Below, piece after piece: positions 52,260 through 57,593 of a DNA stretch of 64,000 nt. Numbering within the stretch: position 1 is the stretch's first letter; each line of letters opens with the position of its first letter. The notes below the pieces were generated by a model. That model made no database searches. It had not been told where the DNA came from and was given only the letters and a program-made list of their open reading frames with translations. Location of the stretch: contig URWY01000001.1 in assembly GCA_900551705.1 (NCBI GenBank), positions 87,953-151,952 on the forward strand. Reading direction: 5' to 3'. The DNA is from an uncultured Bacillota bacterium. GTDB lineage: Bacteria > Bacillota > Clostridia > Christensenellales > UBA1242. Position numbers and translations under genes: made by a program.

Positions 52260-53066
52260 ATGCCAAAAACAAATTTTTGCAATAGCCAAAATAATGACGA
52301 CTGGAAACAATATATTGAAAATTCCAATTCAAATAATATGCAATATATTACTGGGCCTATGGGACCAACAGGTCCTGCTGGTGCAACGGGTGCAACGGGT
52401 CCAACTGGCGCCCAAGGGTTAATGGGAGAAACTGGTCCTAAGGGTGACACTGGTGCAACAGGGTTGCCTGGTGCAAATGGTTTAAACGGAGCAACAGGAG
52501 CGGTTGGCCCGCAAGGTGTGACAGGCCCTCAGGGGGTGATGGGCCCGCAAGGTGCGACTGGTGCAAAAGGAGATACAGGTCCACAGGGAGAAATTGGGCC
52601 TCAAGGACCAACTGGACCAAAAGGAGAAATGGGGGTTCAAGGGCCAATTGGGCCAAGGGGTGAAGATGGGCAAATATCCAATCAAAATGCAACAATATAT
52701 AGCATGGCTGGGCAAGATTTAACAAGTGGCAATCCATTAACACTTTCATCTATTAAAACAAACAATGGGCTTATCGTGGGCGGAACAACAATAACCGTGC
52801 CTGCAACTGGAACATACATTGTTAGTTATTGTATGAATAAAGCGACAAATGCAGCAGGAACAGATAGCGTTTCAATCGCAATAGACGGAACAATGGATAG
52901 AACAACTTCAAGACCATTAAGCGACTCGTCAACAACATGTGGTCACTTTGTAATGAATTTAGATGAAGGAAATGCACTTTCGTTGGTCCCGGTTGTAATT
53001 AACGCGACAAGGCTTGAAGGAAGCGGAGGACCATGTGCGACTCTAACAGTCATCAGAATTGCGTAA
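52260..53066 (+). CDS. collagen-like triple-helix repeat protein with a BclA/C1q-like C-terminal domain
   Basis: 268 aa. TAAGGAG SD. 35 uninterrupted G-X-Y triplets (nt 52353-52667). The C-terminal roughly 130-aa beta-rich domain (...[16 protein letters not shown]...ATLTVIRIA) resembles the BclA C-terminal jelly-roll. Confidence 0.85.
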
Positions 53067-53099: not shown

Positions 53100-53870
53100 T
53101 TATTGTTTTTCTTTTTCTTTTTTCAATTTATCTGCATTCGCATAGCAATTACCTTTTGAACTAAAAGGAACGCCATTAAGCATATTTTTTACTGGATTTT
53201 TTTGTAAAACTTCAAAGTTATTATTAACAGCATCAAACATCATGCATTTGCCTTTGAGATTTTCAACAATCACAAAAGCGTGTCCGTCAGGTGAATTGTC
53301 ATTTTGAAATTTCACATTTTTACTGATTATGTAATATGATTTTAGCCCAGTCATAAGCCATAAATTATGTGCAACGCTTGCAAATTCAACACACGCGCCG
53401 CAATTTGCGTTTTCAAATTCTTTGATAGATGGAACTAAAATATCGTCATTATCATTGAATGTGATTTTTGAAATCTCTGCTCTTTTTTTCATACCCGCAG
53501 TATTTGCAATATTACCGAAATAATTGTTTTCTGTTTCAATGATTGCTCTCAAAGCCGCACCAGACAATTTAAAACCGATGCTTATGTATTTTTCAAGATT
53601 ATCAAAGAAGTTATAATAAATTAGTTTATCATCAAGTTTAAAACCTTGCAAGAAAAGCCTATTTGAGTAAATTGTGTCTTCCGCAGCAAAAAATCCGTTA
53701 TTTTCGTAATTTTTACTTAAAATTTTAATCAAATAATCTATTTTTTTAATTTTTTCATCATTGTTTTGTTCATTTAATATCTCTAAGCAAAGTGCTTTTG
53801 AGTTAGGTTCAGCGCCATATCTCACTGCAATTCCGCTTGAATTCATGTCCATACCATTAAATTTTTCCAT
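53100..53870 (-). CDS. hypothetical protein, possible transglutaminase-like/papain-fold cysteine peptidase
   Basis: 256 aa. Ordered Cys...His...Asp candidates: NCGACVEFASVAHNLW, DGHAFVIV and MMFDAV, with spacing typical of the transglutaminase-like superfamily. The call is by eye only. Confidence 0.4.
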   Translation of the reverse strand: MEKFNGMDMNSSGIAVRYGAEPNSKALCLEILNEQNNDEKIKKIDYLIKILSKNYENNGFFAAEDTIYSNRLFLQGFKLDDKLIYYNFFDNLEKYISIGFKLSGAALRAIIETENNYFGNIANTAGMKKRAEISKITFNDNDDILVPSIKEFENANCGACVEFASVAHNLWLMTGLKSYYIISKNVKFQNDNSPDGHAFVIVENLKGKCMMFDAVNNNFEVLQKNPVKNMLNGVPFSSKGNCYANADKLKKEKEKQ

Positions 53871-53986
53871 AGTAACTCCGTAAACTTTTTTATCTTAACA
53901 TTTACCGCGCCTTGTTGTCAATTAATATTAACTTAATTGATGATTTGTGTAGGAACGGTAAAAATTTTCTTTTTGATAAAAAAGTG

Positions 53987-54014
53987 TTGACAAAATGTTT
54001 TTTTGTGGTAATAT
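53987..54014 (+). promoter_or_regulatory. extended -10 promoter of the asnA leader
   Basis: TTGACA (53987-53992), 16 nt spacer, TGgTAATAT (54006-54014). TATAAT also occurs at 54012-54017. Confidence 0.55.
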
Positions 54015-54044
54015 AATAATATAACAGCAAAAAAGGAGAAAGTT

Positions 54045-54101
54045 ATGTTGTTTGCTATGATCAATAATAATAACAATAATAACAATTGTTTGAGCATCTA
54101 G
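54045..54101 (+). CDS. asnA leader peptide (18 aa) with 8 consecutive Asn codons
   Basis: AAGGAG SD 6 nt upstream. MLFAMINNNNNNNNCLSI*. Asn codons aat/aac run from 54063 to 54086. Confidence 0.65.
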   Translation: MLFAMINNNNNNNNCLSI

Positions 54102-54131
54102 TGGTCATAGTTTAATTCATGCAAAATCTTC

Positions 54132-54165
54132 AAACAATGGTCACTAAACGGCCATTGTTTTTTTA
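54132..54165 (+). terminator. attenuator terminator in the asnA leader
   Basis: AAACAATGG (54132-54140) pairs with CCATTGTTT (54152-54160), followed by a T-run. The upstream segment CAATTGTTTG (54083-54092) can pair 9/10 with 54131-54140 as an antiterminator. Confidence 0.7.
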
Positions 54166-54304
54166 AATTTTCAAGGAGAGTTTGTATGAGAAAAGTTTGT
54201 AGCGGAATAAGAGATTGTAATTTACCTTAATAAATATTTAGAAGTTAAAAAGAACAAAAAATAAAAATCAAATAAAATAAAAAATAAATTAAAAGAGGTA
54301 AATT

Positions 54305-55303
54305 ATGAAAATTATAGAAGATAAATATATTAAATTAGATGTTTTAGATAAACAAAAATACATTAAAATTATAAAAGATAGATTTGAAAGAGAACTTGCT
54401 GGCACGCTTGATCTTGTTCGTGTTTCTGCGCCACTTCTTGTGACAGAAAAATCTGGTTTGCAGGACGATTTAAGCGGTGTTGAAAGAAAAGTTGAGTTTG
54501 ACATTTTGAAAGATGGAGCAACTTTACAGATTGTTCAATCTTTGGCAAAATGGAAAAGATTTGCACTTAAAAAATACAAAATTGCTATGCACAAAGGTTT
54601 ATACACAGATATGCAAGCGATTAGAAGAGATGATAAAATGGACGAAACTCATTCCATTTATGTTGACCAATGGGACTGGGAAAAAGTTATTTCAAAAGAA
54701 GATAGGACGATTGAATATTTAAAACAAACTGTTTGTTCTATTGTAAAGGCTATTAAGCGAACGAGCGATTATTTAAAACGCAAAAGCGGCCTTGATTTTC
54801 CAAAAATCAAAGAAAAAGTATATTTTATAACAAGCCAAGAATTGTTGGATATGTTCCCTGGCAAGACAGACAAGGAAAGAGAATATGAAATTGTGAAAAA
54901 ATACAAAACCGTGTTTATAATTGGCATTGGCGAAAAACTATCTGACGGCAAACCGCATGATTTAAGAGCACCAGATTATGACGACTGGACACTCAACGGA
55001 GATTTGATGTTTTATGACGAAGTCTTGGACATCGCGCTTGAAATCAGTTCAATGGGCATAAGGGTAGATAGTAAAAAACTTAGCGAGCAACTTGAAAAAG
55101 ATGGCAAACAAGACAGAATGAAATATGATTATCATAAACAAGTTTTCGCTGGCGAATTGCCTTTAACTATTGGCGGCGGAATTGGACAAAGCAGACTTTG
55201 TATGCTTCTTTTAGGAAGGGCACACATTGGTGAAGTTCAATCAAGTTATTGGGACGAGAAGACAATTAAAGAATGCGAACAACAAAAAATTGAATTGTTG
55301 TAA
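54305..55303 (+). CDS. asnA: aspartate--ammonia ligase (asparagine synthetase A)
   Basis: 332 aa, colinear with E. coli AsnA motifs: VSAPLL, QDDLSGVE, SLAKWKR, SIYVDQWDWEKV, DLRAPDYDDW, SSMGIRVD, GGGIGQSRLCMLLL. Confidence 0.95.
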   Translation: MKIIEDKYIKLDVLDKQKYIKIIKDRFERELAGTLDLVRVSAPLLVTEKSGLQDDLSGVERKVEFDILKDGATLQIVQSLAKWKRFALKKYKIAMHKGLYTDMQAIRRDDKMDETHSIYVDQWDWEKVISKEDRTIEYLKQTVCSIVKAIKRTSDYLKRKSGLDFPKIKEKVYFITSQELLDMFPGKTDKEREYEIVKKYKTVFIIGIGEKLSDGKPHDLRAPDYDDWTLNGDLMFYDEVLDIALEISSMGIRVDSKKLSEQLEKDGKQDRMKYDYHKQVFAGELPLTIGGGIGQSRLCMLLLGRAHIGEVQSSYWDEKTIKECEQQKIELL

Positions 55304-55310
55304 AATGAAA

Positions 55311-55340
55311 ACATCTAGCAAATGCTAGGTGTTTTTTTTG
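55311..55340 (+). terminator. rho-independent terminator after asnA
   Basis: ACATCTAGCA-AA-TGCTAGGTGT (one G-U) followed by T8. Confidence 0.7.
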
Positions 55341-55385
55341 TTGGAAAAATTTTGGAAAATAAATAATTATGTATATAATATAAAT

Positions 55386-57593
55386 ATGGTTACATTATTA
55401 ATTTTAGATGGCTATGGAATTGGTCAAAACAACAAAAAAACGAATGCAATTTATAAAAATTCGCCAAATGTGGAAAAACTTTTAAAAAATTATCCATCTT
55501 CTACGCTTGTTGCAAGTGGTGAAGGTGTGGGGCTTTCAAAAGGCCAGATGGGCAACTCCGAAACGGGACATTTAAATATTGGCGCTGGGCGAATTGTTTA
55601 TCAAAATCTATCACGCATAGACAATATGATTGCGGACGACTCATTAAAAAATAACAAAGTGATGTTGGAAATTGAAAAACATGTTAAAAAAAGTGGCGGA
55701 AAAATTCATTTGATGGGATTGTTGTCTGACGGCGGCGTTCACAGCCATATAAATCATTTGAAATATTTGCTTAAATCGTTATCAGAAAAAGGTTTAAATC
55801 TTGTTTTGCATTGCTTTTTAGATGGCAGAGACACCAAGTTTGACAGCGGTGTTAACTACTTAAATGAAATACAAAATTTTATTAAAGAAAATGGAATTAA
55901 TTGTGAAGTCGCGGACATTGTTGGCAGAGTTTATGCAATGGACAGAGAAAGGCGATTTGACAGAGTTGAAAAAGCATACAATATGCTTGTTGGAAAACTA
56001 GATGATGTTGAAATTACCGAAAATTTGCAAAATTCGCTTCAAAATTCTTATAAAAATGAGGTTTATGATGAATTTGTCAAACCGATTAAATTGAAAAATA
56101 GCAGCACAATCAATGAAGGCGATGCGATTCTTTCATTCAATTTTAGAACGGACAGAATGAGAGAACTGATTTCTGCATTTGGTGATAAAAATTTTAAAGA
56201 ATTTGATGCAATTAAATTTAAAGATTTGTATATTGCAACAATGACGCAATATGACAAAACTTTTGGTTTTGCGCATGTTATTGTTCCTGAACTTGTGATT
56301 GAAAATTGTTTGTCAAAAGTGTTAAGCGAGAATGGAAAAAAGCAATATCGCGTAACTGAAACAACAAAATATGCACATATAACATTTTTCTTTAATGGCG
56401 AAATTGAAACGCCTTTCCCAGGAGAAGAAAGAATATTGATAGATAGCATAAACACGCAAGATTTTTCAAAATATCCAAAAATGCGAGCAAAAGAAATAAC
56501 TGAAAAAGCGTGTGAGGCTATTCTTTCAAAGAAATATGATTTTGTTTTAATTAATTTATCCAATTCAGATATGATTGGACATACTGGCGATTTAAAAGCG
56601 ACTAAAAAAGCAATTCGATTTGTTGATAAATGTGTTAAAAAATTGGCGGAAGCAAGTTTGAAAGTTGAAAGCGATTTGATTGTAACCGCCGACCACGGAA
56701 ATGCAGAATTGATGATTGACGATAATGGCGTGAAGGTGACATCGCACACAACAAATCGTGTTCCGATTGTTTTGGTGAGCGAAAAATACAAAAAATGCAC
56801 TTTAAAAGACGGCAAGTTGGCAGATATTGCTCCAACAATTTTGAAATTATTAAATATTGAAAAACCTGTTGAAATGACAGGTGAAAGTTTATTGTTAGAC
56901 GAAAGCAATCAGTTTTATGTTTGTCCATCAACAGATCCAGTTGATCCAAAAAATAAAAACTTTGAGAACAATTTAATTGATTATGCAAAATTAATAACAA
57001 CAAGTGGCGCGGACTTTTTGCATTGCGATATCATGGACGGCAAATTTGTTGAAAGAAAGACTTATGATTACAATACTTTAAAAAAATTAAACACAAGCAC
57101 GACAATTCCGCTTGATGTGCATTTGATGACCCAATTTGATATGTTAGAAGTAAAAGAATTCGTTCATGCTGGCGCAAATATTGTAACTTTGCATTTAGAA
57201 AATTTTATTAAATATGGCAAATTGAAGGAAAATAAAATAAAAAGAATTACAAAATATTTTGCAAAAACAAATTGTTTGTTTGGACTTTCAATTAAACCAA
57301 AAACTGAACTTGAATATTTGGAAAAAGTTTTGCAATATGTGGATTTGATTTTGGTTATGAGTGTTGAACCTGGCAAGAGCGGACAAAAATTTATTGAAGA
57401 ATCATTTAACAGAGTTGCTAAAATTAAAGAAATTAGAAACTCGAAAAATTTAGAATTTTTAATTGAAGTTGATGGGGGGATTAATCCAGAAATTTCTTAT
57501 AAATTAAAAAAACTTGGTGCGAATATGGTTGTTTCTGGAAATTATATTTTTAAATCAGAAAATAAAAGAGAAACAATAAAAATGTTTAAATAA
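55386..57593 (+). CDS. fusion protein: 2,3-bisphosphoglycerate-independent phosphoglycerate mutase (N) and ribulose-phosphate 3-epimerase (C)
   Basis: ORF track starts at GTG 55329, inside the asnA terminator. ATG 55386 gives MVTLLILDGYGIG..., typical of GpmI (also GNSETGHLNIGAGR, DGGVHSH, TADHGNAE). From about nt 56910 the Rpe motifs appear: HCDIMDGKFV, DVHLM, MSVEPGKSGQKF, EVDGGIN. No stop or frameshift between the domains. Confidence 0.85.
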   Translation: MVTLLILDGYGIGQNNKKTNAIYKNSPNVEKLLKNYPSSTLVASGEGVGLSKGQMGNSETGHLNIGAGRIVYQNLSRIDNMIADDSLKNNKVMLEIEKHVKKSGGKIHLMGLLSDGGVHSHINHLKYLLKSLSEKGLNLVLHCFLDGRDTKFDSGVNYLNEIQNFIKENGINCEVADIVGRVYAMDRERRFDRVEKAYNMLVGKLDDVEITENLQNSLQNSYKNEVYDEFVKPIKLKNSSTINEGDAILSFNFRTDRMRELISAFGDKNFKEFDAIKFKDLYIATMTQYDKTFGFAHVIVPELVIENCLSKVLSENGKKQYRVTETTKYAHITFFFNGEIETPFPGEERILIDSINTQDFSKYPKMRAKEITEKACEAILSKKYDFVLINLSNSDMIGHTGDLKATKKAIRFVDKCVKKLAEASLKVESDLIVTADHGNAELMIDDNGVKVTSHTTNRVPIVLVSEKYKKCTLKDGKLADIAPTILKLLNIEKPVEMTGESLLLDESNQFYVCPSTDPVDPKNKNFENNLIDYAKLITTSGADFLHCDIMDGKFVERKTYDYNTLKKLNTSTTIPLDVHLMTQFDMLEVKEFVHAGANIVTLHLENFIKYGKLKENKIKRITKYFAKTNCLFGLSIKPKTELEYLEKVLQYVDLILVMSVEPGKSGQKFIEESFNRVAKIKEIRNSKNLEFLIEVDGGINPEISYKLKKLGANMVVSGNYIFKSENKRETIKMFK

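Follow-up and report, generated by a model that had tools for sequence, protein, structure and literature searches.

We analyzed the leader of an asnA gene on a stretch of 64,000 nucleotides (nt) from an uncultured Bacillota bacterium (contig URWY01000001.1, G+C content 32%), hereafter referred to as the window. An earlier note, made from the sequence alone, had proposed that this leader is a candidate ribosome-mediated attenuator that responds to asparagine (Asn), and the elements that it named are present exactly where it placed them: a promoter, an 18-codon open reading frame (ORF1) that follows a Shine-Dalgarno (SD) sequence and contains eight consecutive Asn codons, an intrinsic terminator with its T-run, and asnA itself (Table 1). 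The identity of asnA is firm, since its product scores 329.9 bits against TIGR00669, for which the cut-off is 292.8. The promoter has an extended -10 TG as well as 10 of 12 matches and is among the best promoter-like sites of the region in a promoter scan; from its position, transcription is predicted to start near 54021. An exact (AAY)8 run occurs once in the 64 kb, compared with 0.01 sites expected from dinucleotide-preserving shuffles, and the leader from 54020 to 54175 folds more stably than 200 out of 200 shuffled sequences (z = -3.4). Because asnA has a terminator of its own at its 3' end, the leader controls a monocistronic unit consisting of asnA alone. An ORF of 54 amino acids (aa) on the minus strand (53933-54097, beginning MLKQLLLLLLLLII) was rejected as a gene, being the mere complement of the Asn run and lacking an SD.

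Table 1. Coordinates of the asnA leader, its segments and asnA in the window.
Feature	Position	Strand	Description	Basis or role
Promoter	53987..54014	+	-35 TTGACA 53987-92, 16-nt spacer, extended -10 TG-n-TAATAT 54006-14	sequence
SD of ORF1	54033..54038	+	AAGGAG, 6 nt 5' of ATG 54045	sequence
Leader ORF1	54045..54101	+	MLFAMINNNNNNNNCLSI, 18 codons + TAG	sequence
Segment 1	54054..54063	+	GCUAUGAUCA, codons directly before the Asn run	minimum free energy fold; pairs with segment 2
Regulatory codons	54063..54086	+	8 consecutive Asn codons in ORF1	sequence
Alternative antiterminator strand (earlier note)	54083..54092	+	CAAUUGUUUG (= CAATTGTTTG)	pairs with 54131-54140, duplex dG -6.7
Segment 2	54099..54113	+	UAGUGGUCAUAGUUU, begins at the ORF1 stop codon	partner of segment 1 or segment 3
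Intrinsic terminator	54132..54164	+	hairpin 54132-54160, T-run to 54164	11 pairs, 4 G-C, loop 7 nt, dG -13.1
Segment 3	54132..54146	+	AAACAAUGGUCACUA, 5' arm and loop of terminator	
Segment 4	54150..54160	+	3' arm of terminator	
ORF2 with SD	54173..54230	+	SD AAGGAG 54173-78; ORF2 MRKVCSGIRDCNLP and stop, 54186-54230	between terminator and asnA
Anti-SD	54215..54228	+	UUGUAAUUUACCUU, in last ORF2 codons	pairs with 54295-54308
asnA ribosome-binding site and start	54295..54308	+	GAGG 54295-98, start codon 54305-07	anti-SD partner
asnA	54305..55303	+	aspartate-ammonia ligase, 332 aa	Pfam AsnA 7.9e-97; NCBIfam TIGR00669
Terminator 3' of asnA	55307..55336	+	13 pairs	terminator scan

With regard to the class of leader-peptide attenuators, the window holds a translatable, SD-led ORF upstream of an amino-acid biosynthesis gene, an enrichment of end-product codons in that ORF (eight Asn in a row here and runs of six to eight in ten relatives) and an intrinsic terminator between ORF1 and asnA. 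In silico, it also holds an antiterminator that excludes the terminator, with the choice between the two set by the position of the ribosome, as judged by masked folding, by comparison with shuffled sequences and by compensatory changes in relatives that carry a longer leader.

Two alternative partners compete for the sequence at the end of ORF1. In the minimum free energy (MFE) fold, segment 1 (54054-63) pairs with 54103-12 (UGGUCAUAGU), directly after the stop codon; this 1:2 duplex has a free energy (dG) of -12.7, a value reached by 0.7% of shuffled upstream sequences, and its 5' strand lies under a ribosome stalled at Asn codons 1 to ~5. The whole of segment 2 can alternatively pair with 54132-54146 to form a 2:3 antiterminator of 14 base pairs (bp) with one mismatch (dG -12.1, reached by 1.3% of shuffles). 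Neither pairing was recognized in the earlier note, which also did not list ORF2. The note had instead assigned the antiterminator strand to 54083-92, which can indeed pair with the 5' arm of the terminator. This strand adjoins the Asn run, so that it is exposed only while the ribosome occupies the first two to three Asn codons. The trp/his/leu-type geometry proposed at the outset is therefore upheld by masked folding as far as the attenuator design is concerned, with the amendment that 54083-92 is the weaker of two strands and that segment 2 proper is 54099-54113.

The masked folding was carried out on transcripts ending before the 3' arm of the terminator, with a ribosome footprint of 30 nt blocked. 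Without a ribosome the 1:2 hairpin forms and the 5' arm of the terminator is left unpaired. A ribosome whose A site is on any of the codons Asn1 to Asn4 (or as far as Asn6 at some transcript lengths) disrupts 1:2, and the transcript then adopts one of two antiterminators, either 54099-54113 with 54132-46 or 54082-94 with 54129-41; it is with the A site on Asn2 or Asn3 that the predicted structure is the antiterminator at 54083-92. A ribosome at the stop codon covers both upstream strands and leaves segment 3 unheld, with no antiterminator. The two outcomes that had been foreseen for this leader, a terminator when the ribosome reaches the stop codon and an antiterminator when it stalls on the first Asn codons, were thus reproduced. 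In these models the window leader is a four-segment design of the trp type (1:2, 2:3 and 3:4), for which the strand at 54083-92 may plausibly act as an auxiliary antiterminator, a weaker second option. The terminator ends ~75-100 nt beyond the regulatory codons, a spacing of the same order as that in the trp leader.

Our combined findings make it highly probable that this element is a functional, Asn-responsive, ribosome-mediated leader-peptide transcription attenuator of asnA. Three independent lines support this reading, namely structure prediction with a masked ribosome, the leaders of relatives and the amino-acid composition of AsnA. In the mechanism that we propose, a ribosome would load onto ORF1 of a transcript started at ~54021. 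When Asn is plentiful, it would reach the TAG at 54099 and cover both 54099-54113 and 54083-92; the free segment 3 would then pair with segment 4 to form the terminator, and the polymerase would stop at ~54164. If ORF1 were not translated, segment 1 would sequester segment 2 and the terminator would likewise form. When charged tRNA-Asn is scarce, the ribosome would stall at the first Asn codons (54063 onward) and cover segment 1, and the freed segment 2, or else 54083-92, would pair with segment 3 before segment 4 is made, allowing read-through into asnA. Such a mechanism presumes translation of ORF1, pausing of the polymerase and a kinetic competition between the pairings, and it would tie the expression of asnA to the supply of charged tRNA-Asn.

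We examined how widespread this leader is among relatives. Scans with the AsnA protein, covering one genome per species as well as metagenome contigs, yielded 160 loci with AsnA 51-72% identical to that of the window. An Asn run 5' of asnA was found at only 2 of these, the two closest (L002, 71%; L081, 72%), which indicates that the leader is restricted to a clade. A large protein database contained many closer AsnA proteins (73-98% identical), and twelve of them were examined at the locus level. As had been suggested in the earlier note, relatives were searched for an Asn-run ORF and a terminator 5' of asnA, and the combination is present in 10 further distinct lineages.

The window's own lineage is represented by L165-167 and L179, with AsnA 95-98% identical to that of the window. 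L165-167 retain the SD, the ORF, the terminator (with one substitution in its loop) and the whole of segments 2-4. The promoter is kept in L165 and L179 and the SD AAGGAG is invariant in both, as is segment 2, whereas the linker between segments 2 and 3 carries 4 substitutions. The two substitutions of L165 in segment 1 (G54054A and C54062T) are both neutral with respect to pairing, and one Asn codon of its run has changed to Tyr. In L179 the ORF1 part is identical to that of the window. Compared with window 53960-54310 and L165, L179 (640-1006) is a mosaic, with promoter and ORF1 as in the window and a sequence identical to L165 from the 2-3 linker onward, which suggests recombination within the leader among strains.

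A longer form of the leader was found in 10 distinct leaders (L002, L081, L162, L168, L169, L171, L173, L176, L177 and L178) from uncultured gut Bacillota whose AsnA is 71-78% identical to that of the window. Their order is promoter, SD, ORF1, a first terminator (T1), a second terminator (T2) in 8 of 10, an SD-led ORF2 and asnA, and their promoters (AAAAAGTnTTGACA) resemble that of the window. ORF1 follows the pattern M-[FI]-R-x-I-N6-8-x-N-x-x-N-M-G-F-I-F-V-V-x-x-x and stop, with Asn runs of 6-8 codons; in L176, 7 of 12 codons are Asn, interspersed with Ser. Its frame is preserved, as indels come in multiples of three. The flanking genes vary (radC, a cation ATPase, a Zip transporter, a TMEM164-like gene, a peptidase, a glycosyltransferase and others), and asnA is the constant partner. 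At L178 (418-1200), the Asn leader MFRVARINNNNNNNNALITMGSFFVVY and stop, with one terminator, lies 5' of an operon of dtd (D-aminoacyl-tRNA deacylase) and asnA.

The long-form leaders vary enough for compensatory changes to be followed. For this analysis the arms of terminators and antiterminators were defined by hand, and since MAFFT misaligns the loop of T1, the antiterminator was judged by duplexes and shuffles of each sequence and not by column counts. T1 keeps 96% of its pairing although 5 of its 10 pairs have changed on both strands, and no shuffle reached its score. The antiterminator strand always lies in the last codons of ORF1 (GGGUUUCA with UGAAACyC, UUGUUGA with UCAACA), and it has changed together with its partner in L171 (GGGUUCCA/UGGAAUCC) and between L168 (GAG/CUC) and L169 (GAA/UUC). 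The terminator of L178 is wholly different in sequence, yet it is complementary to the 3' end of ORF1 (-14.2). In the free state of the long form, the Asn codons pair with the U/G-rich antiterminator strand, the equivalent of 1:2. Eight leaders (L002, L081, L162, L168, L169, L171, L173 and L177) have two terminators between ORF1 and ORF2, and 8 of 8 have a T1 whose 3' arm can pair with the 5' half of T2 (-10 to -15 kcal/mol, reached by ≤1.5% of shuffles), again with compensatory pairs (GAGAGUGU/ACACUCUC, GAGGGUGU/ACACCCUC and GGAGUG/CACUCC). Formation of 2:3 would in these leaders free strand 4 to block T2, so that one stalled ribosome could defeat both terminators. By comparison, the window carries what is best described as a simplified version of the long-form leader with one terminator. 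The promoter, the M-x-x-x-I-N(n) start of ORF1, the start of ORF2, a GUAGCGG motif and asnA-gpmI synteny indicate that the short-form and long-form loci are orthologous.

The composition of AsnA provides a third line of evidence. The AsnA of the window has a single Asn (N231) in 332 residues, where the median Asn content of the window's 25 ORFs of at least 200 aa is 7.5%; having one Asn codon only, asnA would be translatable under Asn starvation. Over all loci, AsnA proteins encoded behind an Asn-run leader contain 0-4 Asn (none at all in 13 of 18), whereas those without the leader have a median of 13 (range 0-22, n = 148). The only low-Asn AsnA proteins without a leader belong to the close relatives L175 (0) and L001 (5). 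Biosynthetic enzymes tend to be low in their cognate amino acid, and in a set of 1,790 proteomes Asn shows this bias most strongly (median -3.1 residues; PMC4209129). The bias seen here has the same direction; it differs in being extreme and in co-occurring with an Asn-codon leader. The depletion tracks the leader, as would be expected if the gene is translated while ribosomes stall at Asn codons.

Known RNA families do not account for the element. In a search of the whole window at Rfam gathering scores, only the SRP RNA and one tRNA were found, with no T-box or leader family, and a permissive search (E ≤ 10) of 53950-54320 returned only noise matches to snoRNA and sRNA models. The T-box (RF00230) and the curated leader families (His_leader, Trp_leader, Leu_leader, Thr_leader, leu/phe leader and others) were therefore ruled out as identities of this leader. 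The same search does detect T-boxes in more distant relatives, in L004 with 124 bits and in L007 (upstream, 1327-1565) with 115 bits. At L004 (1312-3969) the T-box is followed by asnS (NF003037, 633 bits) and then asnA, and its specifier region (GAAUAACA) can be read as AAC, an Asn codon. Other relatives lack the Asn leader or keep only part of it: L161 (P0012, 1-1184; AsnA 83% identical) has no leader, and its asnA lies 32 nt 3' of a class-II aminoacyl-tRNA synthetase gene (asnS); no Asn leader was found upstream of asnA at L001; and L175 (P0097, ~1000-1200) retains a remnant, the SD-led MFRHSFNI and stop, with neither an Asn run nor a clear terminator, next to an AsnA with 0 Asn. Judging from these loci, the same genes are placed under different sensors of tRNA-Asn in related organisms, a T-box in some and a leader peptide in others. 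An exchange between T-box and leader peptide has been described for other amino acids (PMC2965389).

A second SD-led frame, ORF2, lies 3' of the terminator and 5' of asnA. Its last codons contain an anti-SD that pairs with the asnA ribosome-binding site and start codon in a helix of 14 bp (dG -14.4), a stability reached by 0 of 500 and 0 of 300 shuffles, and the single Asn codon of ORF2 (54219-21) is inside this anti-SD. The pairing is weaker in L165 and L179 (-6.8, reached by 9% of shuffles) and absent in L002, and the SD and an ATG or GTG start of ORF2 are kept in 11 of 11 relatives that have it. Long-form ORF2 peptides (M-K-K-x-N-A-V-A-G-[DE]...) are rich in Asn and Asp, with 2-7 Asn codons, six of them consecutive in L168 and L173. 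Their frames end within or close to an SD-like segment A (UUUAAGGAG), which is followed by an anti-SD B (CUCCUUAAA); B can pair either with A or with C, the near-identical real SD of asnA. The MFE fold selects B:C in five long-form leaders and A:B in three, and ribosome geometry would permit either logic. In the window, the 3' end of ORF2 would mask the SD and start codon of asnA, ribosomes on ORF2 would modulate asnA translation, and the ribosome-binding site of asnA would be kept accessible by a ribosome that stalls at the Asn codon within the anti-SD. This layer is a hypothetical translational switch and, based on sequence and folding models, is much less certain than the attenuator.

ORF2 also overlaps a small hairpin with a conserved GUAGCG loop (window 54196-54207, UUUGUAGCGGAA; ~1077-1090 in L168). 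The hairpin (GCCGUAGCGGGC) is shared by nine relatives without any change, synonymous sites included, and as it lies in a different reading frame in the window, the constraint acts on the RNA. In L178 two GCCC-NNNN-GGGC-GA hairpins take its place.

A conserved RNA hairpin downstream of the terminator could point to a trans-acting factor, such as an RNA-binding protein, an uncharged tRNA or a metabolite, that sets the switch and renders the Asn-run ORF irrelevant or auxiliary. T-boxes, riboswitches or proteins are the usual means of such control in Firmicutes (PMC2965389), and an Asn T-box is used by relatives of the window. However, the leader has no match in Rfam even at E ≤ 10 and has neither a T-box specifier nor a T-box sequence; its only strongly conserved features are the SD-led ORF, the Asn-codon run and the pairings placed relative to the stop codon, and an AsnA free of Asn is in keeping with a sensor that works by translational stalling. 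We consider control by a trans-acting factor very unlikely. Still less likely, in our view, is that control acts mainly on translation or mRNA stability, with stalling on ORF1 or ORF2 altering access to the SD or access of Rho or RNase, and with a terminator that is constitutive and leaky. The strength of the anti-SD helix in the window, the A:B versus B:C switch around the asnA SD in the long forms and the runaway transcription reported in Bacillus subtilis (PMC13323073) would fit this explanation, yet a constitutive terminator has no need of antiterminators that overlap its 5' arm and co-vary with it, and the anti-SD is weak in the closest relatives and missing from L002. Least probable of all is that ORF1 is an independent gene for a functional Asn-rich micropeptide with its own terminator and only incidentally close to asnA: although the long-form peptides share a conserved C-terminal NMGFIFVV and a 29-aa product was annotated by one gene caller, the conserved codons are precisely those of the antiterminator strand and co-vary with the terminator, the window lineage has a wholly different C-terminus (CLSI) and yet retains the Asn run and the linkage to asnA, and the element always lies directly 5' of asnA (of dtd-asnA in L178) despite varied neighbors.

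Several observations weigh against the attenuator itself. In folds of the full-length transcript the terminator (-13.1) stays in the MFE structure under every ribosome mask, and the antiterminators are slightly weaker than the terminator. The persistence of the terminator in all full-length folds rules out a purely thermodynamic (equilibrium) switch, so the decision must be kinetic, as in the classical systems. In the models, antitermination follows only when the ribosome stalls within about the first 4-6 Asn codons; once it has moved to Asn 7-8, the 1:2 hairpin is able to form again upstream of it. The RNA polymerase of B. subtilis outruns its ribosomes (PMC13323073) and amino-acid leader-peptide attenuators are rare in Firmicutes (PMC2965389), so that efficient coupling in this lineage is an assumption. 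The relatives, too, leave weak points: L165 has AAG in place of the ATG and needs a TTG start 9 nt after the SD; the short-form lineage consists of three near-identical variants, which offer no true covariation for the window antiterminator; and beyond the Asn run no alignment of the short form with the long form is possible. In addition, the host is an uncultured Bacillota lineage of metagenome-assembled genomes, known here from sequence alone.

The surroundings of the locus are as follows. Directly 3' of asnA, on the same strand, lies a gene for a 754-aa fusion of cofactor-independent phosphoglycerate mutase (residues 21-522) and ribulose-phosphate 3-epimerase (549-753), at 55329-57593; the same fusion (735 aa) is found in L161, L166, L167 and L179. 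Upstream, 52260-53066 on the plus strand encodes an exosporium-like protein with collagen repeats and a BclA_C domain, followed on the minus strand by a divergent 256-aa ORF without a Pfam match (53100-53870), which has a promoter of its own (TTGACA...TAAGAT, 53921-53892).

Leader-peptide attenuation is known for His, Trp, Leu, Thr, Ile/Val and Phe, and for Cys in actinobacteria; asnA of Escherichia coli is controlled by AsnC. Compared with the enterobacterial his and trp attenuators, a class modelled in PMC1183508, the window shares a short SD-led ORF with a run of end-product codons (seven His in hisL, eight Asn here), mutually exclusive 1:2, 2:3 and 3:4 hairpins with a segment 2 that adjoins the stop codon, and an intrinsic terminator ~60-80 nt after the regulatory codons; the relay of several hairpins in the his leader is matched in the long-form relatives. 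It differs in its predicted specificity for Asn, in having asnA as its single target and in its uncultured, low-GC Bacillota host, and it has no sequence similarity to hisL or trpL and no Rfam leader match; moreover, its relatives add tandem terminators and a second upstream ORF (uORF). A further parallel is the His leader peptide of bacilli that Naville & Gautheret (2010, PMC2965389) predicted computationally 5' of hisS/hisZ paralogues. That, too, is an amino-acid leader peptide in Firmicutes that replaces the T-box of relatives, just as an Asn leader here contrasts with the T-box-asnS-asnA arrangement of L004, but it concerns another amino acid and other genes, and neither asparagine nor asnA is mentioned in that study. 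The Asn T-box (RF00230) would share with the window leader its signal (the charging of tRNA-Asn), terminator read-through and, in relatives, the target genes; the sensor is different, as the window lacks a T-box fold and the ribosome would read Asn codons.

Ribosome position on a leader ORF also selects between RNA pairings in ermC/cat, bmrCD and vmlR, and the masking of the SD in ermC resembles the pairing of the candidate ORF2 anti-SD with the asnA SD. Of these, the attenuators of bmrCD and vmlR are ribosome-mediated and work in B. subtilis, where they sense antibiotics (PMC4191407, PMC9226507), which demonstrates that attenuation of this type is feasible in Firmicutes. All of these systems differ from the window leader in responding to antibiotics or to a general slowdown of translation and not to one amino acid. 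The earlier note had taken leader-peptide attenuation of asnA as not known to be established. We found no Rfam family for it, and full-text searches, which covered few subscription journals, gave no report of an Asn or asnA leader peptide, so that a prior description is possible. As far as we could check, the mechanism is already known, and the Asn specificity and the sequence family are new.

A more far-reaching reading, which we put forward tentatively and judge somewhat more apt to fail than to hold, is that these leaders form the first Asn-specific family of leader-peptide attenuators and that their full form, in the relatives, is a starvation circuit of three layers. In the first, the Asn run of ORF1 would govern tandem terminators by a relay, with 2:3 freeing strand 4 and 4:5 blocking the second terminator. 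In the second, the Asn/Asp-rich ORF2 would toggle the anti-SD between a decoy SD within the ORF and the real SD of asnA. In the third, an AsnA purged of Asn could be made when tRNA-Asn is uncharged. The window would then carry a reduced version of this circuit, with one terminator and an ORF2 whose one Asn codon is inside the anti-SD. Were the three-layer circuit real, it would imply an effective synchronization of ribosome and polymerase in a Bacillota lineage.

An Asn-specific family, if confirmed, would add one more amino acid to those for which leader-peptide attenuation is used, and would document the replacement of a T-box by a leader peptide for the same genes. With its relay terminators and second uORF, it would offer a natural system for studying ribosome-based sensing where coupling is thought to be poor. 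For metagenomes, the Asn-run leader would provide a simple annotation signature for a regulated asnA. In the organisms themselves, it would link a codon-based sensor of Asn supply to an asparagine synthetase that contains no asparagine.

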